Assembly (NCBI GenBank): GCA_964443565.1
Contig: CAYUCT010000003.1
Location: forward strand, 1 to 59,565
DNA from: Candidatus Woesearchaeota archaeon
GTDB taxonomy: Archaea > Nanobdellota > Nanobdellia > Pacearchaeales > UBA284
Direction: 5' to 3'
DNA: 59,565 nucleotides
The position numbers and the translations under genes were made by a program. Below the pieces are notes generated by a model. It saw only the letters and a program-made list of their open reading frames with translations. It did not search any database and had not been told where the DNA came from. Each line of letters starts with the position of its first letter. Position 1 is the stretch's first letter. Below, piece after piece: positions 3,339 through 49,835 of the stretch.

Positions 3339-4247
3339 ATGTTTTTTATAGAAATGAAAAAAGGTTCAAAGATGACCGAAGAGCAGAGACAAAGATTAAG
3401 CGATGCTCATAAGGGAAAATCTGCTTGGTGGAATAAAGGAAGACATCATACTGAAGAAACTAAGAAGAAAATAAGTGAAGCCAATAAAGGGAAAGACCAT
3501 TGGACCGGGAGACATCATACACTAGAAACAAAAGAAAAACTTAAGAAAAGTCATCAAGGCCCTAAACCTTGGTTACAAGGAAAAAAATTATCTGAAGAGC
3601 ATAAGAAGAAGTTAAGCGAAATTAGAAAAAAATTATTTGAAGATGGGAAAATGACTGCTTGGAATAAGGGAAAGAAAATGAATAAACCCTCTTGGATGAA
3701 AGGAAAAAATCATACACCGGAAGCAAATGAAAAAAATAGGTTGGCTCATCTCGGAAAACCGGCCTGGAATAAAGATAAAAAAACAGGAATTATTCCCTGG
3801 AATAAAGGAAAAATTGGAACTCTACATCATACTGAAGAAGTAAAAGCAAGAATAAGAGAATTTAGATTAAAACAAATCTTTCCATTAAGGGATTCTACTC
3901 CAGAAATAAAGATTCAAAATTTTTTAAAACAATTAAATTTGAAATTTCTTGCTCACAGACCAATGAGGGAGATAGAAAATAGTTATCAATCAGATATATT
4001 TATTCCTTCGATAAATTTGGTAATAGAAATTGATGGAGATTATTGGCATGGAAATACTGATAATCCAAGATTTAAAATATTAAACCAAAAACAAATAAAT
4101 ACTAAAGAAAAAGATGCTATAAGAACAAAAGAATTGCAAGAAAGAGGATTTAAGGTTTTGAGACTTTGGGAAAGCGATATTAAAAAAATGGATGTTAATA
4201 ATTTTAAAGAGAGAATAAAAGAATTTAATAAAATTCTAATTAAATAA
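3339..4247 (+). CDS. NUMOD3-repeat protein with C-terminal Vsr/DUF559-like (PD-(D/E)xK) endonuclease domain; homing-endonuclease-like
   Basis: At least 5 tandem H(H)TxExKxKxSxxxKGK units (NUMOD3-like). C-terminus reads VIEIDGDYWHGN...RGFKVLRLWESDI. The start codon is ambiguous (3339, 3354 or 3372). Confidence 0.6.
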   Translation: MFFIEMKKGSKMTEEQRQRLSDAHKGKSAWWNKGRHHTEETKKKISEANKGKDHWTGRHHTLETKEKLKKSHQGPKPWLQGKKLSEEHKKKLSEIRKKLFEDGKMTAWNKGKKMNKPSWMKGKNHTPEANEKNRLAHLGKPAWNKDKKTGIIPWNKGKIGTLHHTEEVKARIREFRLKQIFPLRDSTPEIKIQNFLKQLNLKFLAHRPMREIENSYQSDIFIPSINLVIEIDGDYWHGNTDNPRFKILNQKQINTKEKDAIRTKELQERGFKVLRLWESDIKKMDVNNFKERIKEFNKILIK

Positions 4248-5451: not shown

Positions 5452-5700
5452 ATACTCGCTCATTCGCATTCGTTCATTCGCTGGAACTTTAAAAATCGTG
5501 TTGATATGGATTAAATTAAAGAACATTCACTCGCTATCGCTCGTTTATCGATAGGGGGTTAAGGTTAATGCACGCTCGCACGCTATCGCTAACTCGCTGG
5601 AGCCAAGGGAAATCACATCATCAATATCATGTTAAGGTTAATGCACGCTCGCACGCTATCGCTAACTCGCTGAAGTTAATGAAAATCATGTCGATAAGGG
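5452..5700. repeat. Degenerate ~73-bp tandem repeat array (3-4 units), CGCT-rich
   Basis: Perfect 42-bp copies at 5558-5599 and 5631-5672 (GTTAAGGTTAATGCACGCTCGCACGCTATCGCTAACTCGCTG). Diverged units lie at 5452-5523 and 5524-5557. Each unit ends in AAAATC(R)YRT(Y)GATA..GG. Confidence 0.85.
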
Positions 5701-6140: not shown

Positions 6141-7463
6141 ATGGGAAAAGTAAGTCCACCATTTATTAAATATGTAATAAAAGCAAAATTTACAACTGTT
6201 GGAGTTGTTGAAAAACCCGATGTAATTGGAGCAATATTTGGGCAAACAGAAGGTCTTTTGGGGGAAGATTTAGAATTACGAGAATTGCAAAAAAAAGGAA
6301 AGATTGGAAGAATAGACGCAGAAATGGCAAATTCTGAAAATCAAACAACCGGAGTAGTTACCATTCCAACTTCAATAGACAAAGCAGAAACTACATTAAT
6401 TGCTGCGGCTGTTGAAACAATTGATAGAATAGGTCCCTGCGATGCAAAATTTGAGATAGACGAAATTGCAGATACAAGAGGAGGAAAAAGAGATTTTATT
6501 TTAGAAAGAGCAAAACAACTTATGGAAAAATTAAGTTCAGCAACTCCTGAAATTAAAGAGATGGAACAATCAGTAATTGATCATAATAGAACATCAAAAG
6601 TCAGAGAAATTGGAGATGAAAAAATTGCTGTAGGTCCGGATGTTGAAGTTAGTAATGAAATTATTATTGTTGAAGGAAGAGCAGATGTTGTAAATCTTTT
6701 AAAATGTGGAATTAAAAATGCAATTGCTATGAATGGAACAAAAGTTCCAAAGATCGTTTATGAAATGGCAAAAGAAAAAATTGCAACTTTATTTGTGGAT
6801 GGGGATAGAGGCGGAATTTTGATTGCAAAAAACGTTTTAGAGACATTAAATATCAAATATGTTGTAAAAGCACCAGACGGAAAAGAAGTTGAAGAACTTG
6901 TTGAAAAAGAAGCGGTTGCTTGTTTAAGAAATAAAATGACTGTTGAAGAGTTTAAGCAAAAATTCTTAGTAGTTGACGAAAATAAAAGATATGAAAAATC
7001 TTATGACAATAGGGAGAGAGGATATAACAATTATTCTGAAGAGAATAGATCAAGAGAAAATTCTTCAAGAGTTTCTTCAAATCTAAGAAATCGAGAAGAT
7101 TCTAGAAAATTTTCAGAATTAAGTGAAAATAAAGAGCCAAAAGAACCAAAAGAATTAGTGAAAATAACTGCTGCAGATCAAAAAGAAATTGAAAAACTTT
7201 TCAAAAGTGTAGAGAACACAAAATTAACTTTGTTAATTTCTAAAGAAGATAAGAAATTAATTGCAATAGATAAAGTTCAAACTACAAAGTTATCTAATGC
7301 AATTTATCAAATTAATCGAAGAGGAAAAAATGTAGATGTTTTAGCAATAGATGGAACAGTAACTCCAAGAATAATTGCTATGGCAGAACAAGCAGGAATT
7401 GCAGCAATTGCGGCAAAGAATTTTTCGGCTTCAAGTGAAAAAATAAAATTAATTTCAGTTTAA
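6141..7463 (+). CDS. dnaG: Archaeal DnaG-type primase (TOPRIM)
   Basis: N-terminus GVVEKPDVIGAIFGQTEGLLG...LRELQKKGKIGRI. TOPRIM motifs IIVEGRADV and FVDGDRGG. SD GGAGGT upstream. Confidence 0.9.
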   Translation: MGKVSPPFIKYVIKAKFTTVGVVEKPDVIGAIFGQTEGLLGEDLELRELQKKGKIGRIDAEMANSENQTTGVVTIPTSIDKAETTLIAAAVETIDRIGPCDAKFEIDEIADTRGGKRDFILERAKQLMEKLSSATPEIKEMEQSVIDHNRTSKVREIGDEKIAVGPDVEVSNEIIIVEGRADVVNLLKCGIKNAIAMNGTKVPKIVYEMAKEKIATLFVDGDRGGILIAKNVLETLNIKYVVKAPDGKEVEELVEKEAVACLRNKMTVEEFKQKFLVVDENKRYEKSYDNRERGYNNYSEENRSRENSSRVSSNLRNREDSRKFSELSENKEPKEPKELVKITAADQKEIEKLFKSVENTKLTLLISKEDKKLIAIDKVQTTKLSNAIYQINRRGKNVDVLAIDGTVTPRIIAMAEQAGIAAIAAKNFSASSEKIKLISV

Positions 7464-7913: not shown

Positions 7914-9251
7914 TTATAAAAAATCTTTTTCGCTTATTTTTGGATTATATTCATTAATTAAATTTTCTTTCATTAATTCTTTAACTTTTTCTTTATTTCT
8001 TTCAAATCCAAGAATCCAAGACAGTTTGGTAAATGCGGTTTCTGTTAGCATATCATCAAGGTATAATACTCCTAATTCGTTTATTTTTCTTCCGGTTTCA
8101 TAAACAAATGGATTTACTCTGCCAAAAATACATTGGGTTGTCATGCAAACAATTATTTCATTTTGTATGGCTTTTTTTATTTGCGTTTCCCAACTTTTCT
8201 CCCCTAAAGAAATATGCCCTAATCCTGTTCCTTCTAGAATAATTCCTTTATACTTATTTTCAATGTAATAATCAATTATTTTTGGATCAGAATTTGGATA
8301 AAATTTTAATATTGCAACTTTATTATCAAAACAAATTTTTGGATAGTTTGGTTCATTCAAGGTTTTTTTGTTTTGAATCTTTTGATTTATTATTTCTACT
8401 TTATCAGGATATGCTCGTGCGATTATTGACTCATTGATTGATTTGAAAGCGTCTCTTCTTGTTGAATGCATTTTTCTTGATTTTACTGCACGAATAATTT
8501 GGCAAAAATCATCATTAGAACTTTCGTGTCCCACTAAAACTACTTCATTTATTTTGGATAATGCTGTTTGAACAGCGCATTGCAAGTTTAATTTAGCATC
8601 ACTTGATCCCCTGTCAATACTTTTTTGAGCATAAGCAAAAACTACTGGTTTATCTAATCTTCCAAGCATGAATGCAATTGCAGAAGCAGTATAACTCATT
8701 GTATCTGTTCCATGTAAGATTATCACCCCCTTATTTTCTTTATTTTTTAAAAGCAGATTAATTTTTTCAGCAAGAATTTTCCAATGATTTGAATTTATGT
8801 TTTCGCTTAATTCTAAAAATGGTTTTTCTATCTTATTAATTTTGCAAATTTTATTTATGTCTGGTGCAACTTCTAAAATTTCAGAAATATTTTCAATTGG
8901 TTTTACCCCTCCAGATTTATAATCTGCCTTGGAAGCAATTGTTCCCCCTGTTAAAATTATAGAAATTCCCGGAAGATTTTCATTTTGTTTTAATTCTTCT
9001 TTTTTAATCTCTTTTTTTTCTGAATTTTTTAGAATCTCCATTCTTTCAATATCTTCTTTTTTTATTCCAATATTATACCCGTTTTCTAATTGTATTATTA
9101 AAATAGCATTATCATACGATTCAAGAATCTTTCCAATATATTCTTTTTTAGTTCTTTTTTCAATAACCTTTACAATTTTTCCAAAGGAAAAATCTTCTTT
9201 TGGTTCTTTTAATATTTTTTTAGATGCTCCTCTTTTTCTTTTTTCTTTCAT
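7914..9251 (-). CDS. gatD: Glutamyl-tRNA(Gln) amidotransferase subunit D
   Basis: Asparaginase-type motifs ILTGGTIASK and HGTDTM behind an N-terminal GatD-type extension. 445 aa. Confidence 0.88.
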   Translation of the reverse strand: MKEKRKRGASKKILKEPKEDFSFGKIVKVIEKRTKKEYIGKILESYDNAILIIQLENGYNIGIKKEDIERMEILKNSEKKEIKKEELKQNENLPGISIILTGGTIASKADYKSGGVKPIENISEILEVAPDINKICKINKIEKPFLELSENINSNHWKILAEKINLLLKNKENKGVIILHGTDTMSYTASAIAFMLGRLDKPVVFAYAQKSIDRGSSDAKLNLQCAVQTALSKINEVVLVGHESSNDDFCQIIRAVKSRKMHSTRRDAFKSINESIIARAYPDKVEIINQKIQNKKTLNEPNYPKICFDNKVAILKFYPNSDPKIIDYYIENKYKGIILEGTGLGHISLGEKSWETQIKKAIQNEIIVCMTTQCIFGRVNPFVYETGRKINELGVLYLDDMLTETAFTKLSWILGFERNKEKVKELMKENLINEYNPKISEKDFL

Positions 9252-9802: not shown

Positions 9803-10081
9803 TTTTTTTTATTTTTAATTTGTTTTTTTATTTTTTTATTTAAAATTGTATTTTTTTATTAGAAATTTATTAAAAAATAGATTAGAAAATTCTTAAGAAA
9901 ACTTTTTAAACTACTAAAATTTAGTTGTACTAAATAAAAGCACAACCATCGGGGGAAAATCTAGTTCTTATTGAAAAATAACGTATGTTACCTTTCTATT
10001 TAATTAAAACATATAAAATTGGTATTTAAACATTTCTAATTTTATGTGTTGAATAAAATAAAAAATTTGAGGAAAAAAAAG

Positions 10082-12088: not shown

Positions 12089-12424
12089 ATGTTATTAAGT
12101 AAAAAAGCAATAATTTCAATAAATCAAGAATTCGATAAAGGAGTTGTTGTAAATGAGAATAGCTTGGATTATGTAATTAAATTGGGTAAGAAATCAAATA
12201 ATTGGCTGAAATCTCTTGCAATGATTGTAAGAGCAATATTAATTGATCATATTTTTGAAGAAGGAAATAAAAGAACTGCCGCAGCAGTAATTATGACTTA
12301 TTTAGAAATGGAAAATTTGCATTATAATACCGATAAAATAAATCATATGATAATTAAAATTTTAAAACACAACATCACGAATATTGATGAAATAATGATA
12401 TTAATAAAAAATGTTACAGAATAA
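12089..12424 (+). CDS. doc: Doc (death-on-curing)/Fic family toxin
   Basis: Doc-type Fic motif HIFEEGNKRTA in a 111-aa ORF. Confidence 0.8.
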   Translation: MLLSKKAIISINQEFDKGVVVNENSLDYVIKLGKKSNNWLKSLAMIVRAILIDHIFEEGNKRTAAAVIMTYLEMENLHYNTDKINHMIIKILKHNITNIDEIMILIKNVTE

Positions 12425-12704
12425 AAATATCAAAAATAATACTGAAATAGGAAAAGACGATAAAAGATTCATTGAAATAGCAAGAAATTTAATTAAAAAA
12501 AATCCCGAAGTTTTTGAAGCATTGATGGATTTTGAAAGAACAAAAAAACTCCCAAAACTCTCAAGAAAGGAGAGAATTAATCTTACAATAGATTCTGCTC
12601 TCTTAAAAAAATTTAGAGATTATTGTAGAACAAATAACAAGGTTATGTCTAAGATAATTGAAGAAAAAATTAAAGAAGAACTTGGAAAAAAAGCACTAAA
12701 TTAA
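12411..12704 (+). CDS. Ribbon-helix-helix (CopG-like) protein, putative cognate antitoxin
   Basis: RINLTIDSALLKKFRDYC...MSKIIEEKIKEEL is an RHH-like pattern. It overlaps the doc 3' end by 14 nt. Confidence 0.55.
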   Translation: MLQNKNIKNNTEIGKDDKRFIEIARNLIKKNPEVFEALMDFERTKKLPKLSRKERINLTIDSALLKKFRDYCRTNNKVMSKIIEEKIKEELGKKALN

Positions 12705-12894
12705 TGAAAGGGAAAACATTTATTAATACCTGTTTGTAATAATTAATATAAAAAGAGGCAGGTGGAAGTTAATATAATTTTGAGATTATGAAACTAATTT
12801 ATTAACTATTATTAAAATATCTTCGGAGAGATTATAAAATAAAAATTTTATGTTCCCCTTAGCCTTTAAAGATATCGAATAATGAGATTTCTGG

Positions 12895-12918
12895 GGCCGG
12901 CTTCGGCCGGCCTTTATT
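12895..12918 (+). terminator. Perfect GC hairpin with UUCG loop plus T-rich tail
   Basis: GGCCGGC-ttcg-GCCGGCC followed by TTTATTT. It directly abuts hairpin-array element A. Confidence 0.45.
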
Positions 12919-12919
12919 T

Positions 12920-13216
12920 ATAATACTAAAAAACAGAAACCTAGAAAAGCTTTGCTTTTCTGGTCCAGAAAATTATCTAATTTTCTTGGAACTGTTTGCC
13001 TTTAGGTAACAGATGAATGTCCTCAAAAATATTCTATTTTTGGGACGCAGAAAATCTTTTAGATTTTCTATGCGTTTTCTGTTTTTGGTACTAGGAAAAC
13101 AATGTTTTCCTGTACATGAAATTATTCAATTTCATAGTATCCCGAAATTCAAAGCAAACCACCCATTTTAATGGGGGGTGATAGGGATTTCGTGATTTAG
13201 CAATCGCTAAATTATT
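12920..13216. repeat. Hairpin-array element, copy A (conserved scaffold plus about 9 short hairpins)
   Basis: Shares with 49608-49835: ATAATACTA.AAAACAGAAACC; (G)GTTTTCTGTTTT; TATCCCGAAAT(T)CAAA..CAAACCAC; GATTTCGTGAT. The interior holds perfect A-run/T-run hairpins with G/C clamps. Confidence 0.7.
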
Positions 13217-15422: not shown

Positions 15423-15493
15423 GGGGTCATAGTTCAACGGTAAAACTTCCGGCTCCAAACCGGCGATTGGGGGTTCAAATCCTCCTGACCCCA
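15423..15493 (+). tRNA. tRNA-Trp: tRNA-Trp (anticodon CCA), no encoded CCA tail
   Basis: Acceptor GGGGTCA/TGACCCC. Anticodon stem CCGG/CCGG with loop CTCCAAA. T-arm GGGGG-TTCAAAT-CCTCC. Confidence 0.85.
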
Positions 15494-15654
15494 TATAACG
15501 GATTTGAACCTGGTTCAAATCTCCTCGAAAATCAAAAGATTTTCGGGACACAATGAAATTAAGAAAATTTCATGTGCAGAAAATAAGAAATTTTCATGCG
15601 TCAAAAATTCAAAAGAATTTCTAAGCACTCCTGACCCCATATAACGGATTTGAA
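15482..15654 (+). mobile_element. 119-bp hairpin-array insert flanked by 27-bp direct repeats that include the tRNA-Trp 3' end
   Basis: CTCCTGACCCCATATAACGGATTTGAA occurs at 15482-15508 and again at 15628-15654. The insert 15509-15627 holds 4 short hairpins and a T-arm-like GGTTCAAATCTCC. Confidence 0.5.
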
Positions 15655-15719: not shown

Positions 15720-17465
15720 ATGTTTTTTTCAGAACTTTCAGAAACACTTGAAAAATTAGATGCTACAACCAAGAGATTGGAAATGTTTGAAATTTTAAGT
15801 TCATTTTTCAAAAAATCAAATTCTTCAGAAATTGATAAATTAGTTTATTTTTTGCAAGAAAAACTTTTACCTAATTTTTATGGCATTGAAATGGGTATTG
15901 CAGAAAAGATGGTAACAAAATCATTAAGTAAGGCATCTGGATTATCTGAAGAAAAAATTGAAATACTTTTTAAAAAGAAAGGAGATTTGGGATTAGTAGC
16001 AGAAGAAATTCTCTCAAAAAAACAACCAACTTTATTTAAAACTAAAGAACCAACAATTAATGAAGTTTATGAAGAATTATTAAAAATTGCAAAAATTTCT
16101 GGAGATGGAAGTAATTCTAGAAAGATTGATATGTTAACCGGATTAATAACTCGAGTTTCTGGAAACGACGCGAGATATATTATCAGATTTGTTCTCGGTA
16201 GTTTAAGATTGGGTGTAGGGGATCCAACAATTATGGATTCTTTGGGGAAGGTTTTTAGAGAAGATAGATCATTTAGACAAGAAATAGAAAAGGTATATAA
16301 TCTTTGTTCTGACTTGGGTTTAGTTGCAAAAACATTATTTGAAAAAGGTGAAAAAGGAATTAAAGATTTTAAAATTAAAGTTAATTCTCCAATTAGAATG
16401 GCGCTAGCTGAAAGATTGCCAAATTCAAAATCAATAATTGAAAAAATAGGGAGATGTGCCGTCGAAACAAAATATGATGGGATAAGAATTCAATGGCATT
16501 TAGAAAATGGAAATGTTAAATTATTTTCAAGAAATTTAGAAAATATGACCGCGATGTTCCCGGATTTAGTAAAGGGAATAAAAGATCAAATAAAAGCAAA
16601 ATCTGCAATTGGAGAAGGGGAAGCAGTAGCATATAACGATGAAACAGGGGAATTTTATCCATTTCAAATAACAATAACTCGAAAAAGAAAATATAACATT
16701 GAAAAACAAGCCAAAGATCATCCATTAGTTTTATTTTCATTTGATATTCTTTATATTGATGGAAAAGATTTAACTCAGGAACCTTATTTAATTCGAAGAG
16801 AAAGACTTTCTAAATTAATTAAAAAAGGATTTACAATTAGAGAAGCAGATAAAATTATTACAGATGATCCAAAAAAAGTAGAATCCTTTTTTGAAGAAAA
16901 TATTGGAAAGGGGACAGAAGGGATAATTGCAAAAAGATTAGATTCACCTTATCAAGCAGGAGCAAGAAATTTTAATTGGATAAAATTAAAGAGAAGTTAC
17001 AAGGGGGAATTAAATGATACAATTGATGTTGTTATAATTGGTTATTTTAAAGGAAAAGGAATGCGAAATAAATTTGGAATTGGTGCATTACTTGGGGCAA
17101 TTTATGATAAAGAATCAGATACATTCAAAAGTATTGCAAAAATTGGTTCTGGTTTAACCGAGGAGAATTGGGTTGAATTAAGAAAATTATTAGATAAAAT
17201 AAAAACAGATAAAAAACCATTGAGAGTAGACACATTAATTGAACCCGATGTTTATTGCATGCCCAAATATGTTTTTACTATTATGGCTGACGAGATAACT
17301 AAATCTCCAATACATACTGCAGGGAAGAAAAAAATTTCTGATGTAGGTTACGCTTTAAGATTTCCAAGAATACAAGGTTGGATAAGGGATAAAAATTCCG
17401 AAGATGCTACTGAGACAAAAGAAATTATTGAAATGTTTAAAATGCAAATTAAAATGAAAGAATAA
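15720..17465 (+). CDS. lig: ATP-dependent DNA ligase
   Basis: Adenylation motif ETKYDGIR, EGIIAK and the C-terminal OB region LRFPRI. I chose ATG 15720; the ORF track starts at TTG 15705. Confidence 0.93.
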   Translation: MFFSELSETLEKLDATTKRLEMFEILSSFFKKSNSSEIDKLVYFLQEKLLPNFYGIEMGIAEKMVTKSLSKASGLSEEKIEILFKKKGDLGLVAEEILSKKQPTLFKTKEPTINEVYEELLKIAKISGDGSNSRKIDMLTGLITRVSGNDARYIIRFVLGSLRLGVGDPTIMDSLGKVFREDRSFRQEIEKVYNLCSDLGLVAKTLFEKGEKGIKDFKIKVNSPIRMALAERLPNSKSIIEKIGRCAVETKYDGIRIQWHLENGNVKLFSRNLENMTAMFPDLVKGIKDQIKAKSAIGEGEAVAYNDETGEFYPFQITITRKRKYNIEKQAKDHPLVLFSFDILYIDGKDLTQEPYLIRRERLSKLIKKGFTIREADKIITDDPKKVESFFEENIGKGTEGIIAKRLDSPYQAGARNFNWIKLKRSYKGELNDTIDVVIIGYFKGKGMRNKFGIGALLGAIYDKESDTFKSIAKIGSGLTEENWVELRKLLDKIKTDKKPLRVDTLIEPDVYCMPKYVFTIMADEITKSPIHTAGKKKISDVGYALRFPRIQGWIRDKNSEDATETKEIIEMFKMQIKMKE

Positions 17466-31758: not shown

Positions 31759-31810
31759 CGCTCAAAAACTTTCAGTTTTTGGCGCCCAGAAAATCTTTGA
31801 TTTTCTTGGG
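31759..31810. repeat. Two adjacent hairpins of the hairpin-array family
   Basis: GCTCAAAAACT-ttc-AGTTTTTGGCG and CCCAGAAAATC-ttt-GATTTTCTTGGG. These are the same hairpin types as in copies A and E. Confidence 0.5.
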
Positions 31811-31903
31811 TTTTTCCTTCGGTATCGTTGCACTAAAAATCAATCCTATCGGAGAGTTTAATAAGGATTAAGTTCGTGCCTTAACTTTTTAGTACAACCT
31901 TTT

Positions 31904-33654: not shown

Positions 33655-33801
33655 TTACTTTTTTTTAGAAGTCTTTTTCTTTTTAGCTAATTTTTTAAGT
33701 TTTTCAACTTTACTTTGTTTGGTTCTTTTTCTAGGAGACCTGCCTTGATTTTTAACAGATTTCTTTTTCACTTTCTTTTTTGTTTGTTTTTTCTTCGCCA
33801 T
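33655..33801 (-). CDS. Lys-rich basic micro-protein (48 aa), hypothetical
   Basis: MAKKKQTKKK...KKKTSKKK. The longer ORF-track start (33852) runs into the G+C-rich island, so I chose the internal ATG. Confidence 0.35.
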   Translation of the reverse strand: MAKKKQTKKKVKKKSVKNQGRSPRKRTKQSKVEKLKKLAKKKKTSKKK

Positions 33802-33814
33802 TTTTATAATTATT

Positions 33815-34015
33815 AAAGGGCTCGGTGGGGAAGTGCCACAAACAAAGACCAATTCAATCTTAACCTATCAGTTTGTTTTAATGGTTATCTTCCTCGTGCT
33901 GTAAAGAAGCTTAAAGAGTACAGATTTCATATGGTGAGTTATAGCCCTTCCACCATATTAATAGCCGAATACTCAACAGAGGCTTAACAGTCACATCCTT
34001 TTCAAGGACAACCGA
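33815..34015. ncRNA. G+C-enriched structured island: candidate ncRNA or cis-regulatory leader, identity unknown
   Basis: Minus-strand reading gives GUCCUU-GAAA-AGGAU and AUAUGGUG-(14 nt)-CACCAUAU hairpins nested within GAGUA/UACUC and CUGU..AAGC/GCUU..ACAG helices. The loop AAGGGCU is complementary to AGCCCUU just upstream of the micro-ORF start. Confidence 0.3.
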
Positions 34016-34237: not shown

Positions 34238-34468
34238 ATGGAATATAAAACTAAAATTGATTCAGAGAACTATAAACATATTATCCCTCTCTTTAGTGCT
34301 CTTGATTCGTCATATGAAGAAGGGAGCAGAGTGCATTCATCTTGTGAAAAACCTTGTGTTTGCGTATGTGTTTGTAGACATGGAAAGGCTTCTTCAATGG
34401 ATTTTTCAAAAAAGAAAGATCTTGAAAAAAATATAGAAGAACTCTTTGAAAAAGTTCTGGCAGCATAA
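34238..34468 (+). CDS. Cys-rich small ORF, candidate precursor peptide A
   Basis: MEYKTK...SYEEGSRVHSSCEKPCVCVCVCRHG.... I chose ATG 34238 because its spacing to the upstream element matches module 2. Confidence 0.4.
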   Translation: MEYKTKIDSENYKHIIPLFSALDSSYEEGSRVHSSCEKPCVCVCVCRHGKASSMDFSKKKDLEKNIEELFEKVLAA

Positions 34469-34499
34469 AGTTTTTATAAGACATAGAATTCTTTTCATA

Positions 34500-35549
34500 A
34501 TGGAAAAGGTTATTATAGATGATTTAATGAGGGTTTTAAATAAAAAATTGAATAGACTCATTCCTTTTAACAAAAGATTTGATGTTTTTCTACAAAAAGG
34601 AGGGGTTGGATGTTATGATATTAAAAGATGGGCAGTATTTGTTCCAGATTCTTTTGATAATTATATGAAAATTCATACAATTTTACATGAAGGAGCACAT
34701 TTAATCCTAAGAGAGAAAATATCAAACTTAATCTCGTCAAAAAAATTTGATAGACTCAAATGGTCTATGGAACCTTTTTTTATAGAAAATTCTATTTTTT
34801 CTTTAGACGAAGCTTTTGCAGAAATGGTTACAACCATAATAATGTCAGAACTTCCAGAAGATTTTTTTAAAAAGGGCATTGTTTTTGATAAATTTTCTGA
34901 ACCTTCTTATAAAGATTCTAATAAGAAATTAGATGTTTTCTTAGCAAAAATTTCAGAATGGAAAATCCCAATAACTCTTAAAAATAATAATCTTAACATA
35001 TCAAATACGCTTAATAATTTAACTTTTTTAGGACCTGAAAAAAGAATTCAAACAATTATTGATTCTTTATCTATTTTAAATGATTATAATTATGAAGGAT
35101 TTATAAAAAAAATAATGGAGGATCCCTTAAAAAATTCTCCGAGTATGAAATTATTATTAAATACCCTCCCTTTTAAAGTTAAGATAAATAAAGAAATCAA
35201 AAATTTTGACAAACAAATTTTTTTAGATTATTTAGAAACTCTTTCATGGGGGGATTATAATGAAAATTATTATGCCTATTCCGAATTTATTGATAAAAAA
35301 AATTTAAACAAAATAAAAAAACAAAAAATTCCAAAAATAAACACCAAAATTAAAGAAAGATTTTTGCAAATTTCAAAAAATTTAGGGGAGATTAGAGAGA
35401 AAATAATGTGTGCATGGGAAGCGAAGGATGAAAATAAATTAAAAAAATTAATTGAAAATTACAATTCAGAAAGGTGGAAATATAGGAAAAAAATAGACTT
35501 AAAAAATAATTTTAATGAATATGGTTTTGGAACATTCAAATGGGAATAA
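34500..35549 (+). CDS. HExxH protein, putative metallopeptidase
   Basis: ILHEGAHLILRE followed by LDEAFAEM. I chose the start at 34500 to avoid overlap with the small ORF. Confidence 0.5.
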   Translation: MEKVIIDDLMRVLNKKLNRLIPFNKRFDVFLQKGGVGCYDIKRWAVFVPDSFDNYMKIHTILHEGAHLILREKISNLISSKKFDRLKWSMEPFFIENSIFSLDEAFAEMVTTIIMSELPEDFFKKGIVFDKFSEPSYKDSNKKLDVFLAKISEWKIPITLKNNNLNISNTLNNLTFLGPEKRIQTIIDSLSILNDYNYEGFIKKIMEDPLKNSPSMKLLLNTLPFKVKINKEIKNFDKQIFLDYLETLSWGDYNENYYAYSEFIDKKNLNKIKKQKIPKINTKIKERFLQISKNLGEIREKIMCAWEAKDENKLKKLIENYNSERWKYRKKIDLKNNFNEYGFGTFKWE

Positions 35550-36667
35550 AAGAAAAATATAATCTTAAACAGATTAATGAAAAGTTTTTAATAGACAAAG
35601 CCTCGATGAAAACAAGAATAGAAAAAGTTTCTTGTTTGAAAATTTCTGCACCTCTATATGCTCAATATGAAATCATAGAAAATTGCAATCAAAGATGCAT
35701 TTTTTGTTATAATGTTTGGAAAAATAGAAAGAAAAATTCCTGTAAAAAAAGAGAGTTAACATTAAAACAACAATTAAAAATTATAGACAAGTTAGCAAGA
35801 ATGAAAATTTTTGGATTGATTCTCTCTGGAGGAGAGCCCCTTATCTCAAAAAATTTATTTAAAATAATTGAAAGGGCGTCAAAAAAATATGGAATTGAAG
35901 TAAGTATTATTACAAATGGAACATTATTGACAGAAGAAGTATGCAAGAGATTGAAAGAAAACGGATTATCTGATATGCAAATATCCCTTCATAGTTTTAA
36001 AGAAAGAGATAATAACAAAATTACCGGGATGAAAAATTCTTTTGGTAGAACTGTTTCTGGGATAAGAAATGCTCTTAAATATTTTTCTCCAGAAAATATA
36101 AATATCAATATGGTTCCAACAAAAAAAACATATAACCAAGTGTATGATACAGCCAAGTTTTTAAAAAATTTGGGAGTTATCAATTTTACAGTTAGTTCTT
36201 ATGTTTATACAGGAAATAAAAAGTTAGATAAAGAATTAGCACCGACTAAAAAACAATTTTTAGAGATATATAATCAAATAGTTAAAGTGAAAAAAGAACT
36301 TTTTATGAGAACATTTATTGGGGGTTGTTATCCTCTATGTTCTCTAAAAAAGAAAATAGATGATGAAGTTATTTCTTTAATTGGAAATATCTGTGATGCA
36401 GGAGTTACTCAAATAGTCATTAGCCCAAAAGGGGATTTAAGACCTTGTGTTGCTTATGAGCATATTTTAGGGAATATACTAGAAGATGATCCTTTAAAAA
36501 TATGGAAAAATTCAAAAATTCTTAAAAAAATAAGAAGAATGGAAAATATTCCTTTAATGTGTGAAAGATGTAAACATTTAGTAATTTGTCGAGGAGGTTG
36601 TAGAGCATCGGCATATAATAAATCTAAGCGACTTGACGATATTCATCAATTAATAGAAAATGACTGA
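35540..36667 (+). CDS. Radical SAM / SPASM-domain maturase-like enzyme
   Basis: CNQRCIFC, LSGGEPL, KGDLRPC (Gx4C), CERCKHLVICRGGC (Cx2Cx5Cx3C). Confidence 0.85.
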   Translation: MGIKEKYNLKQINEKFLIDKASMKTRIEKVSCLKISAPLYAQYEIIENCNQRCIFCYNVWKNRKKNSCKKRELTLKQQLKIIDKLARMKIFGLILSGGEPLISKNLFKIIERASKKYGIEVSIITNGTLLTEEVCKRLKENGLSDMQISLHSFKERDNNKITGMKNSFGRTVSGIRNALKYFSPENININMVPTKKTYNQVYDTAKFLKNLGVINFTVSSYVYTGNKKLDKELAPTKKQFLEIYNQIVKVKKELFMRTFIGGCYPLCSLKKKIDDEVISLIGNICDAGVTQIVISPKGDLRPCVAYEHILGNILEDDPLKIWKNSKILKKIRRMENIPLMCERCKHLVICRGGCRASAYNKSKRLDDIHQLIEND

Positions 36668-36929
36668 ATATATTTTATTTAAGCATCCCGATTTAAAAAT
36701 TAGAAAAGAAAAATTTGGAGGAATAATAAAAACTGTAAGAGGATTATTTTTAATAGACAAAAAAGCATATTGTTTGTTAAAGAAGATTGACAATAAAAAA
36801 ACATATTCGGAATTAACTGAAGAGAATGAATCAAAGAAAGTAATTGAAGATTTATTAAAACTTAAAATAATTTTAAAAATCGAAGTAGGGAGAGCTGAAA
36901 GAGTAAAAAATCTCAAAGATAAAAATTAA
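36660..36929 (+). CDS. PqqD-like small protein (putative RiPP recognition element)
   Basis: 89 aa. KFGGIIKTVRGLFLIDKKAYCLLKKIDNKKTYSEL resembles the PqqD family pattern. It overlaps the rSAM stop by 8 nt. Confidence 0.55.
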   Translation: MTEYILFKHPDLKIRKEKFGGIIKTVRGLFLIDKKAYCLLKKIDNKKTYSELTEENESKKVIEDLLKLKIILKIEVGRAERVKNLKDKN

Positions 36930-36935
36930 GTGTGT

Positions 36936-37006
36936 GTCTCTCTAATATCTATCTCCCTTAAAAATATTATTTCATCTTTTTTTAAAAAAATAAGCAAAGA
37001 ATAACG
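36936..37006 (+). promoter_or_regulatory. 71-bp conserved upstream element, copy 2
   Basis: Matches 34102-34172 at 70/71 nt. It ends 64 nt before ATG 37071. Confidence 0.8.
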
Positions 37007-37070
37007 ATTATGCATTAACTAAAAAGTTACAATTCAAAAACCTTAAATAGTTTTATATCTTTTAAAAATT

Positions 37071-37544
37071 ATGAAAGAAAATGACTCTAAACCAATTTAT
37101 AGGGAATTAAAATCTCCAGTTACAGCTCAAATGGCTTTGACTTACGGATGCAATAATTTATGTAGGTATTGTTATAATTCTACAAGGGGATTAGAAAATC
37201 AAGATACGGGAATGTCCATAGAAAATTCCATGAAAATAGCAAAACAGATTGTTGATAGTGAAATTTTTGAAGTTGTTCTAACAGGAGGGGAGCCATTGTT
37301 GAGAAGAGATTTATTATATCCTTTAGCAAAATATTTTTCCCAAAAAAAGACCGATGTTAAAATGGAAACCTTAGAAAAAAAGGCAGAAGATGTAGGAAAA
37401 GCATCTCTTAGAGATATCCGAGCTATGTCTATCAAGATACCTGCATACAATGCAAAAAGCGAAGAAAGCAGATTCAGTATTTATGACATGGCAGAGTATT
37501 CTTGTGATGCTGCATGCGACAATTGTCATTGTGCAACTTACTAA
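37071..37544 (+). CDS. Radical-SAM N-terminal fragment fused in frame to a Cys-rich peptide (candidate precursor B)
   Basis: CNNLCRYC and VVLTGGEPLL, then the homology stops near the A7 run at 37342-37348. An internal Met at 37362 begins a 60-aa peptide ending EYSCDAACDNCHCATY. Confidence 0.5.
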   Translation: MKENDSKPIYRELKSPVTAQMALTYGCNNLCRYCYNSTRGLENQDTGMSIENSMKIAKQIVDSEIFEVVLTGGEPLLRRDLLYPLAKYFSQKKTDVKMETLEKKAEDVGKASLRDIRAMSIKIPAYNAKSEESRFSIYDMAEYSCDAACDNCHCATY

Positions 37545-37550
37545 TTCAAA

Positions 37551-38210
37551 ATGCCAATACACTATGGAAATATGCTTACTTTGAAGTATAAAGATTTAAT
37601 TAGTGATAAGTTTAATTCTCTAATAAAATTTTTTGATTTTGAACCAGGAGATGTTTTTATAGAGATTTTGCCATTGGAAATGTTTGAAAGATTTTCCGAA
37701 TTGGAAAGAGGTAAAAAACCAGAATTTTTTGTTGTTGGTTCTGCTCTAAATAATGGAAGAGTTATCATCTTAGATAAAAAAGATTTTGAAAAAAAAGAGC
37801 ATAAAGCAGAAGAATTTGAAAGAGTAATTCTGCATGAATTGGCACATATGTTTATAAGAAGAATTCTTTGGCCAAAACAAACATTTCCCTGGATTGAGGA
37901 AGGAATTTGCGAGTATTTATCTTTTGGAGATTATCCATTAAAAGTAAAAAAATTTGTGAATTTTAAAAATTTAGAAAAAAAAGAGGACTGGAACAAACAC
38001 TATGCTTATCAACAGTCAAGGGAATTTTTTAAATTTTTAATTAAAAAATTTGGAAATAAAAAAATTGCAGATTTTATTAAAAAAATAAAAGAAAAATCAG
38101 AAGAAGAAAGTTTTAAAGAGGTGTTTGGAAAAGAACTAAATGAATTAGAAGAAGAATTCAAATCCTCTTTAAAAAATGAAAAAATTATGCCATCCAGGAA
38201 CGCCTTGTAA
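37551..38210 (+). CDS. Peptidase-MA-like HExxH protein
   Basis: ILHELAHMFIRR ... WIEEGICEYL (HExxH plus a downstream Glu; Peptidase_MA_2-like). Confidence 0.6.
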   Translation: MPIHYGNMLTLKYKDLISDKFNSLIKFFDFEPGDVFIEILPLEMFERFSELERGKKPEFFVVGSALNNGRVIILDKKDFEKKEHKAEEFERVILHELAHMFIRRILWPKQTFPWIEEGICEYLSFGDYPLKVKKFVNFKNLEKKEDWNKHYAYQQSREFFKFLIKKFGNKKIADFIKKIKEKSEEESFKEVFGKELNELEEEFKSSLKNEKIMPSRNAL

Positions 38211-39306
38211 AATCAATAATTATAGAGATTTAGATATTTCTATATTAAAAGAAGAATACAAGGAATTAGTTAATTGTTCAGATGGTTGGGCAATTTTTGG
38301 AAGAGATTCATTTTGGATAAGTAATGAAGAATTTTCAAAGATAAATTTATCAGATAATTTTAAAATATTCAAAGTTGATAGTTTTAGATTAAATGGTTGG
38401 GGGTTTTATTCTCCGATAAGTTTAGAAATTGAATTAACAAAAAAATGTAATCAAAAATGTATTCATTGCTGGAATGAGTCAGGAAATGGGTCAGTAATTA
38501 GATTGGAAAAACTCGAAGAAATTGTTGATGAATTTAGAGAGAAAGGTGGGCAGAATTTAAAATTGACTGGAGGAGAACCCTTTCTGCATCCTTCTTTTTT
38601 TAATTTTGTAGAATATTCAAAAGAAAAAGGAGTTAGGAATATTGAAATCACAACAAATGGAAGTTTAATTAACGAGGACAATGTTAAATTTTTATCAAAA
38701 TATATTAATCAATTAAATATAAGCTTGCATGGTGCAACTGAAGAAACCCATAATAAAATTACAAGAAGCCAAAATTATCAAATAGTAAGGAAAGCTATTT
38801 CATTATGTAATGATTATGGATTAAGTCCTATAATAAATTTTACAATTATGGGAAAGAACAAATCTGAAATAGAAGCAATGTTTAAATTATTCCAAAATTC
38901 AAAAAATAGGATAAGATTTAATTTACTTATGCAAAGAGGTTCTGGAGAAAAATTGGAAGACATTTCTGCAGAAATTTTTAAATTAAGAAAAGAAATAAGA
39001 TATTTTGGTTCATTGTATTCGGTAGAATTAGAAAAAAGTGGGTTGTATCCTCAAGGATATAATAAAGAAGTAGAAAGTTCTAAATTTTATGGTTGTAGTG
39101 CATTAAGAACGGGAATGTATCTTTCTTCAGAAGGATTAGTTTTTCCTTGTAATTTAGCAACCAATCCTATAGGAAATATCTATGAGAATTCTATTTCTGA
39201 CATCTGGAGAAGTGAAAATGCTAAAAAAATTAGAGAAATTATTTTATGTGAGAAATATTCTTGTGGTGTTTCTTGTGGTGGAAGATGTAAAGCAAAAGAA
39301 ATATAA
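38176..39306 (+). CDS. Radical SAM / SPASM-like enzyme with an ~85-aa N-terminal extension
   Basis: CNQKCIHC, LTGGEPF, EGLVFPC (Gx4C), CEKYSCGVSCGGRC. Confidence 0.85.
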   Translation: MKKLCHPGTPCKINNYRDLDISILKEEYKELVNCSDGWAIFGRDSFWISNEEFSKINLSDNFKIFKVDSFRLNGWGFYSPISLEIELTKKCNQKCIHCWNESGNGSVIRLEKLEEIVDEFREKGGQNLKLTGGEPFLHPSFFNFVEYSKEKGVRNIEITTNGSLINEDNVKFLSKYINQLNISLHGATEETHNKITRSQNYQIVRKAISLCNDYGLSPIINFTIMGKNKSEIEAMFKLFQNSKNRIRFNLLMQRGSGEKLEDISAEIFKLRKEIRYFGSLYSVELEKSGLYPQGYNKEVESSKFYGCSALRTGMYLSSEGLVFPCNLATNPIGNIYENSISDIWRSENAKKIREIILCEKYSCGVSCGGRCKAKEI

Positions 39307-39501: not shown

Positions 39502-39900
39502 TTAATTAATTAAAAATTCTGGAGATTTTTGAATCATTTTGTTATATTGTTCATCTGGAACAGTTCTATCAATATAATACTGTGAATCAATTCTTGCTTT
39601 TAATGAATGTTCAAGAAATATTAATTCTGTTTCGTCAAAATATTCAGTTAAAAATCTTTTTGCAAATTCAATGGTACAAGAATGAACTTCACATTTTATC
39701 CCTATTTTCATTAATAAAGCATAAAGTGAAAAATAAATAGTATAATAGGCTGTTGAAATTTTCCAATCTTTGATATTATTCACCCTCATAGATTCAAGAG
39801 CATCTTCTGCTTTTTTGATGTAGGCATTGGCTAAATTTGGATTGGAATTAATTAATTTTAATCCTTCTTTTTTTTCAATACACCATTTAATTTTATCCAT
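39502..39900 (-). CDS. HEPN-domain protein (partner of the adjacent nucleotidyltransferase)
   Basis: All-helical, about 130 aa, with ARIDSQYY near the C-terminus. With the internal start MDKIKW it overlaps the upstream MNT gene by 8 nt. Confidence 0.55.
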   Translation of the reverse strand: MDKIKWCIEKKEGLKLINSNPNLANAYIKKAEDALESMRVNNIKDWKISTAYYTIYFSLYALLMKIGIKCEVHSCTIEFAKRFLTEYFDETELIFLEHSLKARIDSQYYIDRTVPDEQYNKMIQKSPEFLIN

Positions 39901-40483
39901 CTTTAAAAATTGTTTGTATAAATTTTTCCGCATTACAAAAGATTATATGGTCTTTTAGAATTTCTTTTAAAAAAATGTCTTTATTAATATTTTTCTCAAA
40001 ATTTTTTATAGGATAACATTTAATGTTTATTTCTATATTCCAATTTTTTGAGATTTTTTCTATCTCTTTTTGATTATAACTCCCCGCAATAAAAATATCT
40101 AAATCTGAATTTTCTCTTTCTAATCCCTTAACATAGCTCCCAAATATAACCCCTATTCCATTAATCTGGGGGGATATTTTTTCTATAATCTCTTTAATCA
40201 AAAGTTTTTTTTCTAAAAAGGTTAATGTTTTATATTGTTCTGCAAAAATAAGATATCTTTTAGTAAACTCGCTTGGATTTAGTTTAAATGTTCTAATTTT
40301 TCCTCTAATCTTTGATTCTATAACCCCCTTATCTTCTAAATTTTCAAGAATAAGTTGTGCGGTTCTTGGACTTATCTTTAATAATCTTTGAACTTCTCGA
40401 ATATAGTATTCTCTATTAAAATCATAAGTGAATAGGGATAAAACCTGTAATGTATTTTCAGTTATGTTAATTTTTTTATACAT
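39893..40483 (-). CDS. wHTH plus minimal nucleotidyltransferase (MNT) domain protein
   Basis: GSYVKG...NSDLDIF (GS...DxD) follows an N-terminal winged-helix-like segment. Confidence 0.65.
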   Translation of the reverse strand: MYKKINITENTLQVLSLFTYDFNREYYIREVQRLLKISPRTAQLILENLEDKGVIESKIRGKIRTFKLNPSEFTKRYLIFAEQYKTLTFLEKKLLIKEIIEKISPQINGIGVIFGSYVKGLERENSDLDIFIAGSYNQKEIEKISKNWNIEINIKCYPIKNFEKNINKDIFLKEILKDHIIFCNAEKFIQTIFKDG

Positions 40484-41449: not shown

Positions 41450-42349
41450 ATGTATAGAAAGCGAAGGGGAAACTATTTTGAATCTCAATCAGGAGATGAT
41501 GTAGGTATTTTAAATAATTATTTATACCAAATAAAGAAATATCCAGTATTAAGTGAAAAAGATCAAAGAGAAAATTTTAAATTATTAAAACAAGGAAATT
41601 TAAAAATAAAAGAGAAAATTTTTAATTCTAATTTAAGATTGGTTATAAGTGTTGCAAAAAATTATTTTGCTAAATATCCTGCCTCTCGAATGGATATAAT
41701 TCAAGAAGGAAATTTAGGTTTAATGCGTTCTATAGAATCTTTTGATTTATCTAAAAAAACAAGGTTTTCAACATATGCATATTTTTGGATTGAACAAAGA
41801 ATAAGAAAATATTTGGAGACCGATGGAACTTTAATTGCCTTGCCCCATAATTTGAATTTTGAAATAAAAAAATTTGAAAAGGAAAAACAAAATTTTTTTA
41901 AATTTACTGGGAGAGACGATTCTTTAGAACATCTTGCAAATACATTCAATGAAAAAGAAGAAACCATTAGGAAAACACTTGAAAAAAGAGTAGAAATATT
42001 TTCTTTAGATGCCCCCATCAATGAATTTGAAGAGGATTCTTCTTTAATGATAGATCATTTAGAATATGGGGAATTAGATTCTCCGGAAAAAAAGGTTTAT
42101 AAAGAAAAAATTAAAAAATTAATGCTTAAAAAAATTTCTTCTCTTCCCCGCAAATCTCAAGAAATTGTGTTATTACGATTTGGTCTTAAAGATGGATATG
42201 AAAGAACATTAAAAGAAGTAGGTGAAATTTTTGATTTAACCAGGGAAAGAGTGAGACAAATAATAGATAAGAGTTTAGAATTAATAAAAGAAGATAAAAA
42301 TTTTATTGATGAATTAAAGAACTTATGTAATAAACAAGAATTGAAATAA
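41450..42349 (+). CDS. Sigma-70 family RNA polymerase sigma factor (bacterial type)
   Basis: Region 2: DIIQEGNLGLMRSIESFD...FSTYAYFWIEQRIRKYL. Region 4.2: TLKEVGEIFDLTRERVRQIIDKSL. Confidence 0.85.
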   Translation: MYRKRRGNYFESQSGDDVGILNNYLYQIKKYPVLSEKDQRENFKLLKQGNLKIKEKIFNSNLRLVISVAKNYFAKYPASRMDIIQEGNLGLMRSIESFDLSKKTRFSTYAYFWIEQRIRKYLETDGTLIALPHNLNFEIKKFEKEKQNFFKFTGRDDSLEHLANTFNEKEETIRKTLEKRVEIFSLDAPINEFEEDSSLMIDHLEYGELDSPEKKVYKEKIKKLMLKKISSLPRKSQEIVLLRFGLKDGYERTLKEVGEIFDLTRERVRQIIDKSLELIKEDKNFIDELKNLCNKQELK

Positions 42350-49607: not shown

Positions 49608-49835
49608 GATAATACTAGAAAACAGAAAACCTTATCCACAATCTAAACGCTCAAAAATCTATAAGATTTTTGACGCACAGAAATTATAAATTTCTGCAGG
49701 ATTGCGGTTTTCTGTTTTCTGTATCCCGAAATCAAATACAAACCACATACTAAAGTCCTTGAAAATGTGAAACATTTTCGAGACCCAGAAAACAAAAGTT
49801 TTCTAGAGTGTATGTGGTACTAAAGATTTCGTGAT
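49608..49835. repeat. Hairpin-array element, copy E (conserved scaffold plus 4 hairpins)
   Basis: AGAAAACAGAAAACC at 49617-49631 is perfectly complementary to GGTTTTCTGTTTTCT at 49706-49720. AAACCACATAC pairs with GTATGTGGT, and ATCCCGAAATC pairs with GATTTCGTGAT. It shares its scaffold with 12920-13216. Confidence 0.7.

Follow-up and report, generated by a model that had tools for sequence, protein, structure and literature searches.

The intergenic DNA of the 59,565-bp stretch analyzed here (contig CAYUCT010000003.1 of Candidatus Woesearchaeota archaeon, hereafter the window) carries arrays of short hairpins, and these raise the question of whether they are genes for a structured RNA or DNA repeats. 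An earlier note on the sequence had described two of them, copy A and copy E, as a long-range scaffold with interchangeable hairpins and had proposed either a modular noncoding RNA (ncRNA) or a REP/BIME-like or MITE-like element. We conclude, with a probability of roughly 0.68, that the arrays have been built up from small noncoding palindromic DNA repeats, which form a lineage-specific family in a Pacearchaeota-type clade. The repeat reading was thus supported in kind, by the indel at copy E, by the turnover of the arrays and by the recurrence of their units, while the ncRNA reading was not.

The window is a complete contig with a G+C content of ~27%. It encodes archaeal markers, including EF-1alpha, the Hjc resolvase, an ATP-dependent DNA ligase, GatD, diphthamide synthase and a type II methionine aminopeptidase (MetAP), and the top homologues of its MetAP and ligase carry the name Candidatus Pacearchaeota, which places its source among the DPANN archaea. 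Five hairpin arrays (A, B, C, D and E) were found in these 60 kb. They comprise ~20 hairpin units of 22 to 28 nt within 59.6 kb, and their location was intergenic throughout. Copy numbers were read from this one contig and from the contigs of relatives rather than from a whole genome. Abutting clamped hairpins occurred 4 times in the window versus 0.03 times in dinucleotide shuffles, i.e., they were about 100 times more common. Two assemblies are broken inside arrays, one at the start of the window (array B) and one at the end of Logan contig L002, which corresponds to position 13087 within copy A.

Copies A and E lie 36 kb apart and share, as previously described, four scaffold strings in identical order. 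The string ATAATACTA(A/G)AAAACAGAAA is located at 12920 and 49609 (3 matches at ≤3 mismatches versus 0.34 expected), where the 20-mer ATAATACTANAAAACAGAAA matches exactly. GTTTTCTGTTTT is present at 13074 (complement at 12930) and at 49707 (complement at 49619), TATCCCGAAAT at 13138 and 49722, and GATTTCGTGAT at 13186 and 49825. The ends of the two copies match, including an identical 9-mer and an identical 10-mer. Both copies are directly preceded by ATAAT, both end in GTGAT, and both have hairpins at both ends. The limits first assigned to them (12920 to 13216 and 49608 to 49835) enclose genuine arrays but do not delimit the mobile units, which span 49614 to 49835 for copy E and, by analogy with copy E, 12925 to 13196 for copy A.

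The limits of copy E were given by a close strain in which the element is missing. MetAP is encoded directly downstream of copy E, and its homologue on JGI contig L035 is 97% identical in protein, with flanks 91 to 97% identical to the window DNA (strain ~95% identical). Where the window reads TTTTTGATAAT-222 bases-CTTCAATAATTT, L035 reads TTTTTGATAAT joined directly to CTTCAATAATTT (GATAAT/CTTCAAT), which is a clean empty site. The extra block corresponds to window positions 49614 to 49835, with a junction that is ambiguous by 2 bp (AT), and its limits match those of the similarity between A and E, apart from the shared ATAAT, which belongs to the flank. Copy E is hence a 222-bp indel polymorphism located 3' of ATAAT, without terminal inverted repeats (TIRs) and with at most 2 bp duplicated. 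Relatives with a 65 to 72% identical MetAP have the same gene order (methyltransferase, ~165-aa gene, MetAP), and we found no element in their MetAP spacer, which measures only 50 to 70 nt. Given the empty site and these relatives, copy E is therefore more likely a recent insertion than a block that was precisely deleted from the sister strain. Judged from these sequences, it is not a conserved gene.

The basic unit of all arrays is an AT-rich imperfect palindrome of 22 to 28 nt with the consensus CC(T)AGAAAAT-loop-ATTTTCT(A)GG. It consists of a G/C clamp, an (A/C)(G/A)AAAA(T/C) arm and a 3- to 5-nt loop, often with one bulged base beside the clamp. Copies A and E alone were too few and too unequal in length for a covariance model. 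When 22 units were aligned with MAFFT, the 5' arms aligned well and clearly agreed on C/G, C, (T), A/C, G/A, AAAA, T/C, followed by the loop and the complementary arm, while the 3' arms were shifted. This consensus indicates a sequence family, not a mere shape. Units at nonorthologous loci in different genomes could also be closely similar. The unit at 15522 to 15549 (C2) is 93% identical over 28 nt, loop included, to L051 3374 to 3401, and unit E1 is 92% identical over 24 nt to a unit of L053.

Most units are paired as adjacent doublets of 47 to 55 nt. These are A1-A2, A4-A5, A6-A7, C2-C3, C4-C5, D, E1-E2 and E3-E4 in the window, plus pairs in L049, L050, L051 and L053. In many doublets, the first unit is of the CTCAAAAA type and the second of the CAGAAAA type. 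Bulges tend to lie in the 5' arm of the first unit and in the 3' arm of the second, and the doublet therefore reads alike on both strands.

Five separate comparisons placed doublets within the loop of a hairpin that is older than they are, and the first three are backed by a sister sequence that lacks the doublet. In L050, compared to L049b, a doublet lies inside a GTCATTGAGA...TGAC hairpin; between L051 and L052, a doublet lies inside an ATTCGC...GCGAAT hairpin; and between L049a and L051, a doublet lies inside GTC...GAC, with a CACCC/GGGTG helix added. The other two cases are P1 and domain 2 of copies A and E, described below, and the T-arm of a duplicated tRNA-Trp 3' half in array C. Units thus sit preferentially in the loop of an existing palindrome or right beside it, and arrays grow by nesting and abutting. 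Because doublets repeatedly occupy the loops of older hairpins, the multibranched "structure" of copies A and E is a record of nested insertions, and this also accounts for their appearance as a scaffold plus interchangeable hairpins.

To what extent the arrays are conserved could be seen in the FtsZ-to-CARDB gene region, which is syntenic in several relatives. In L046 to L048 and L053, the equivalent of the copy A spacer is 30 nt long and that of the Hjc/tRNA-Trp/array C spacer is 85 nt long, both without hairpins. L049, L050, L051, L052 and L054 carry differing hairpin-bearing inserts at the copy A and array C spacers. L051 (18 kb), which is syntenic with positions 1 to 24 kb of the window, has six arrays (1770 to 1830, 3360 to 3575, 6650 to 6825, 8423 to 8480, 12716 to 12790 and 16940 to 17000) where the spacers of the window have none. 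L051 and L052 are 99.8 to 99.97% identical over blocks of 2.6 to 2.9 kb (1 to 4 substitutions), yet three hairpin sites differ structurally between them. The first is a doublet within the loop of a hairpin located downstream of 'RNA X' (a conserved block described below), the second is the scaffold that separates the nitroreductase gene from the ligase gene, and the third is the sequence flanking a further doublet on the left. The more distant relatives L036, L040, L043 and L047 had essentially no arrays. Array positions are not conserved between relatives, and in intergenic DNA the gain and loss of units and doublets far outpaces the accumulation of point substitutions.

In both copy A and copy E, the frame consists of two hairpins, P1 and domain 2, whose loops are filled by different doublets. 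Both P1 (ACAGAAA(A)CC...GGTTTTCTGT) and the helix that closes domain 2 (CGAAAT...ATTTCG) are in turn palindromes of the unit type; the loop of P1 holds 5 hairpins in A and 2 in E, and the loop of domain 2 holds 1 in A and 3 in E. The numbers of terminal hairpins reported previously, about 9 in A and 4 in E, were reproduced, with one of those in the A region (13193 to 13214) lying beyond the mobile unit.

Copy A (all coordinates on the plus strand) is a composite hairpin array of 272 bp that runs from ACTAAAAAACAG to GATTTCGTGAT. The ATAAT pentamer to its left (12920 to 12924), a flank or putative target, lies outside the element and is also present before copy E and in the L035 empty site. The outer helix P1, a CAGAAA(A)C...GTTTTCTG unit, pairs a 5' arm at 12926 to 12940 with a 3' arm at 13074 to 13088 (GTTTTCTGTTTTTGG). 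Between these arms lie doublet A1-A2 at 12941 to 12990 (CTAGAAAAGC-ttt-GCTTTTCTGG and TCCAGAAAATT-atct-AATTTTCTTGGA), the odd hairpin A3 at 12992 to 13012 (CTGTTTGCC-ttta-GGTAACAG) and doublet A4-A5 at 13019 to 13073, in which a CTCAAAAA-type unit precedes a GCAGAAAAT-type unit, the type order being that of D and E1-E2. Doublet A6-A7 (13088 to 13137) consists of a CTAGGAAAAC unit and a CATGAAATT unit. Domain 2 (13138 to 13196) has the form TATCCCGAAAT...CCACCC-loop-GGGTGG...GATTTCGTGAT, i.e., a CGAAAT/ATTTCG unit with an inner hairpin, and a scaffold resembling it is present in L049 at 2230 to 2345.

In the 222-bp copy E, preceded by the flanking ATAAT at 49609 to 49613, the arms of P1 (49618 to 49632 and 49706 to 49720) form the perfect 15-bp pairing that had been noticed before. 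The P1 loop contains doublet E1-E2 (49649 to 49696). Doublet E3-E4 (49758 to 49809) sits inside the domain 2 helix CCACATAC/GTATGTGG, in which 49743 to 49750 pair with 49810 to 49817. In L036, whose MetAP is 72% identical, the spacer that holds copy E in the window carries a single type-I unit, GCCAAAAAT-agat-ATTTTTGAGC (9940 to 9960). This unit overlaps a stop codon, namely that of the gene preceding MetAP.

The same hairpin types had been reported at three further places, and arrays are indeed present there (1 to 38, 15500 to 15627 and 31760 to 31811). Array B (1 to 38) is a fragment, as the contig starts inside the unit CAGAAATTC-cgat-GAATTTCTAAGCG (2 to 21); the sequence that follows resembles the right junction of array C. 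Doublet D (31760 to 31811) is a lone doublet of 52 nt between convergent genes and consists of a GCTCAAAAAC unit and a CCCAGAAAATC unit.

Array C (15508 to 15627) follows the tRNA-Trp gene (15423 to 15493). Across 15471 to 15654, the 3' part of tRNA-Trp and 16 nt of its trailer are duplicated, giving an exact 27-bp direct repeat that comprises the tRNA-Trp 3' end and trailer (CTCCTGACCCCATATAACGGATTTGAA), with a first copy at 15481 to 15507 and a second at 15628 to 15654. Units C2 to C5 sit at the T-loop position of this duplicated 3' half, which is why the direct repeat flanks the array. Hairpin C1 derives from an inverted copy of the T-arm, GGATTTGAACC, also held in the trailer, and this inversion looks like the product of a template switch. 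The spacer between the nitroreductase and ligase genes lacks both Hjc and the tRNA in the relatives, and the Hjc/tRNA-Trp block was therefore moved or inserted in the window.

Just upstream of copy A lies a conserved noncoding block, 'RNA X' (12735 to 12915), which is also present in L049 (620 to 775), L050 (915 to 1075, minus strand), L051 (8195 to 8355) and L052 (2590 to 2770). It has a promoter-like GGAAAACATTTATTAA, continues with AAAAAGAGG...TTCCCCTTAGCCTTT, which are able to pair, and is terminated by a hairpin that is rich in G+C and has a TTCG loop. The stem sequence of this hairpin differs between the window and the relatives, while its pairing is kept. 'RNA X' had no match in Rfam and might represent a small RNA of the clade that has not been described before. 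Further upstream, a Fic/Doc-like open reading frame (ORF) with the motif HIFEEGNKRTA overlaps a 97-aa ORF (12089 to 12704). This pair is absent from the matching 30-nt spacer of L046 to L048 and was therefore probably inserted with, or beside, the region of 'RNA X' and copy A.

Could copies A and E nevertheless be paralogous genes for a modular structured ncRNA, with hairpins that serve as protein-binding or stabilizing modules under selection for RNA structure? Their predicted structures are very stable (RNAfold, -101.9 kcal/mol and z = -10.0 versus shuffled sequences for A; -77.5 kcal/mol and z = -10.3 for E), and long-range helices are common to both. However, the minus strands are comparably stable (z = -8.2 for A and -10.2 for E). 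The earlier note had taken stems that differ between copies but stay complementary as a sign of selection on structure. This argument does not hold, because a palindrome is self-complementary on both strands: its arms are complementary by construction, both strands fold equally, and stems that differ yet remain complementary are to be expected even if RNA is not under selection. If the function were strand specific, G·T mismatches should be favored over A·C mismatches on the functional strand, but we counted 7 G·T versus 14 A·C mismatches and as many bulged bases in the 5' arm as in the 3' arm (11 versus 11), i.e., no strand bias. All arrays of the window have the orientation of most genes, and since A follows the putative 'RNA X' and C follows tRNA-Trp, cotranscription is conceivable. 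No conserved promoter lies upstream, and the elements are not higher in G+C than the surrounding DNA, unlike the tRNA (55% G+C). In agreement with the earlier statement that no known RNA family was recognizable, only tRNA-Trp passed the Rfam gathering score in the whole window, and permissive scans of A, E, C and relatives gave only generic hairpin matches far below threshold. Moreover, copy E is missing from a ~95% identical strain and from all more distant syntenic relatives, arrays differ between 99.9% identical strains, and their positions vary between relatives. Neither conserved presence at orthologous loci nor strand-specific compensatory substitution was found. The mismatch, Rfam, G+C and presence/absence data therefore argue against a conserved structured RNA, and we regard this explanation as improbable. 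A still more doubtful alternative is that the arrays are maintained as regulatory signals, either bidirectional terminators or insulators or 3' stabilizers of mRNA, as proposed for bacterial REPs. Oligo-T is an archaeal termination signal, every unit has a T4-T5 tract on both strands, 10 of the 11 arrays examined lie downstream of at least one gene 3' end, and the single L036 unit overlaps a stop codon. Yet the genes on either side of one L051 array are divergent, such hairpins are missing from most genes of the window and of the relatives, and presence varies between near-identical strains, which fits tolerated insertions better than required signals. A regulatory role is compatible with a repeat family as a secondary effect, in that the T4-T5 tracts on both strands could aid transcription termination or insulation.

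A different objection concerns the origin of the hairpins, which might arise in place, without a mobile element, by template switching at replication forks and by slippage or gene conversion between A-run and T-run arms at unstable spacers. This would account for hairpin C1 as an inverted copy of the adjacent tRNA T-arm and for the 27-bp duplication around array C, and it agrees with the instability of the same two spacers in several genomes and with the lack of TIRs, target duplications or a transposase in what was searched. It does not readily explain why copy E forms a clean block of 222 bp with ends that match those of copy A 36 kb away, nor why units at unrelated loci in different genomes have arm and loop sequence in common, and the unit consensus is too specific for independent origins. 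We consider it unlikely that the hairpins arose in this way. For the repeat family, we suppose that movement would proceed through folded single-stranded or cruciform DNA, driven either by a nuclease or transposase acting in trans, with its gene elsewhere in the genome, or by recombination or template switching among arms of similar sequence. The enzyme-driven single-strand route appears more likely, if unproven. The absence of TIRs, a duplication of at most 2 bp, the ATAAT and the clean empty site together form the footprint that would be expected of an IS200/IS605-type single-strand element, as read from two copies only. Recombination and replication error remain a serious alternative because no transposase was found, because the differences between L051 and L052 are partly replacements, not clean insertions, and because the T-arm is inverted at array C. 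Several results weigh against a mobile repeat family. There is only one clean empty site for a full element, and there an insertion is formally indistinguishable from a precise deletion. A search for a gene that could mobilize the arrays had been suggested, but a Pfam search of the ~50 ORFs of the window detected no Y1/HUH transposase (TnpA), RAYT, TnpB, integrase or other transposase, nor was a mobilizing gene present among the called genes at the relatives' loci. The family is visible in a handful of contigs only. An exact-pattern scan of GTDB genomes with the 5' scaffold gave 23 matches, all due to chance in unrelated, mostly coding sequence; a scan of JGI metagenomes with the domain 2 string gave 9, all due to chance and mostly coding; and the doublet pattern had 10 chance matches in IMG/VR, none of which was a hairpin doublet. 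No match was obtained by blastn when copy A was compared to phages and copy E to plasmids.

Other candidates were considered and rejected. A replication origin does not fit five arrays in 60 kb and more in relatives, and a CRISPR was dismissed as there are no regular repeat-spacer units. We saw no boxes and no pockets of C/D or H/ACA guide RNAs, and there was no model match for RNase P or signal recognition particle RNA, the elements being absent in relatives. A tRNA intron was discarded since an intact tRNA-Trp lies upstream of the duplicated half. The remnant of a tRNA-targeting integrative element at array C could account for the 27-bp repeat, but its two copies are only 120 bp apart, and there is no integrase.

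We then compared the arrays to known repeats. In kind, the family is REP/BIME-like or double-hairpin-like, without belonging to any defined family. Like REPs, BIMEs and REPINs, the units are short imperfect palindromes with bulges, intergenic and clustered in mosaics, and REPs are also thought to act as folded single strands; the ~20 units in 59.6 kb agree with the description of REPs as intergenic imperfect palindromes of 20 to 40 nt in many copies. Strict membership was not supported. REP palindromes carry a conserved GTAG or CGTC tetranucleotide at one end (PMC3733652), whereas the archaeal units lack this tag and have a consensus that starts with C/G-C-(T)-A-G-AAAA. Their stems are AT-rich instead of GC-rich, and their arrays are made of tandem complete hairpins nested in loops instead of alternating REPs or inverted pairs. 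Finally, the RAYT gene associated with REPs has no counterpart among the window ORFs or the called genes of the relatives' loci.

The comparison to MITEs of the TIR type gave a similar result. Like these, the elements are small, noncoding, multicopy, intergenic, lineage specific and nonautonomous, and TIR-type MITEs have been reported to be dense in some DPANN genomes (PMC11602168); generic REP-like palindromes have also been counted in archaea (PMC12306157). However, the two ends of the 222-bp element (ACTAGAAAAC... and ...GATTTCGTGAT) do not form a reverse-complementary pair, and there is no clear target duplication, the 2-bp AT ambiguity at copy E being either a duplication or chance. The A/E composite resembles the PATEs derived from IS200/IS605, which insert 3' of a fixed target of 4 to 5 nt, in that it has no TIRs, at most 2 bp duplicated and hairpins at or near both ends, and ATAAT lies 5' of 2/2 copies with an apparently precise empty site, although two copies are too few to establish a target. 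As differences, the window contained neither TnpA nor TnpB, and the interior of the composite is full of further palindromes, which is atypical of PATEs.

BOX elements of Streptococcus pneumoniae are intergenic, have the plan boxA-boxB(n)-boxC and are predicted to fold stably, and they are linear repeats of fixed sequence. The arrays share with them a modular plan with conserved ends and a variable number of internal modules, but they are nested palindromes rather than linear modules, and the bacterial elements are unrelated in sequence.

By form, the arrays are most readily placed beside the hairpin elements of organelles (Allomyces, Volvox mitochondrial and plastid DNA, sponge RHEs and yeast GC clusters). 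As far as these are summarized in PMC2670323 and PMC2800124, the likeness extends to units of ~50 nt with one or two hairpins and 3- to 5-nt loops, to an intergenic location in an AT-rich compact genome, to a restriction to close relatives with numbers that vary between sister taxa, and to mutual insertion, which gives composites of up to several hundred nucleotides, with no target-site duplication and no known mobilizing enzyme. Volvox palindromes average ~50 nt, have 3- to 5-nt loops, are intergenic and often inserted in one another, and form composites of up to 633 nt by a mechanism left undecided (PMC2670323). The double-hairpin elements of Allomyces mitochondria have no flanking duplications according to the summary in PMC2800124, and their number differs between sister species. 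The doublets of 47 to 55 nt, the nesting and the variation between strains correspond to this descriptive class, by form and not by homology. Indeed, the organelle elements belong to eukaryotes, whereas the arrays lie on the free chromosome of a DPANN archaeon, and there is no sequence similarity.

In a limited literature search, nested double-hairpin arrays were not found to have been described for any archaea, DPANN or other. As a tentative proposal, about which we are doubtful, the arrays could represent a self-nesting double-hairpin repeat of a DPANN lineage that targets palindrome loops, including the T-arm of a tRNA gene copy, and moves via folded single-stranded or cruciform DNA by an enzyme or repair route not yet linked to any repeat family. 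It would then be the first counterpart of the organelle double-hairpin elements on a cellular chromosome. If this is true, nesting would yield, as a by-product, multihelix scaffolds of 200 to 300 nt, a possible raw material for new structured RNAs. The loop-in-loop growth is like that of the organelle hairpin repeats, whose mechanism has been unsettled for decades, and an archaeal system for which many strains have been sequenced could allow this question to be tested by comparing populations. Since DPANN genomes are very small and gene dense, repeats that turn over faster than point mutation and mark recombination-prone spacers matter for strain typing, for breaks in the assembly of metagenome-assembled genomes and for rearrangement. 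The arrays also carry a warning: extreme predicted stability and "covarying" stems are no proof of an RNA gene when the units are DNA palindromes.

Further features were observed in the window. Just after EF-1alpha, a 302-aa ORF (3339 to 4247) encodes three NUMOD3 motifs and a DUF559/PvuRts1I-like nuclease domain and is homing endonuclease-like; at this site, L051 has only a 306-nt spacer with a hairpin doublet. A direct repeat of ~70 nt (GTTAAGGTTAATGCACGCTCGCACGCTATCGCTAACTCGCTG..., 5555 to 5680) lies in a 743-nt gene-free stretch upstream of a Toprim/primase gene. A G+C-richer gene-free stretch (33800 to 34010) within a 1.1-kb gap had no Rfam match and folded no better than shuffles (z = -1.2 and -1.9). 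Overlapping HEPN and nucleotidyltransferase genes form a module of the toxin-antitoxin type (39502 to 40483). The 299-aa ORF at 41450 to 42349 contains bacterial-type sigma-70 regions 2 and 4 (E values of 1.8e-17 and 2.8e-14) on an otherwise archaeal contig. Finally, the region from 34238 to 39306 starts with a small ORF for a Cys-rich peptide (...SSCEKPCVCVCVCRHG...), followed by three radical SAM genes (35540 to 36667, 37071 to 37544 and 38176 to 39306), of which two encode SPASM domains, and by a gene for a metallopeptidase (37551 to 38210); it looks like a peptide modification cluster of the RiPP type.

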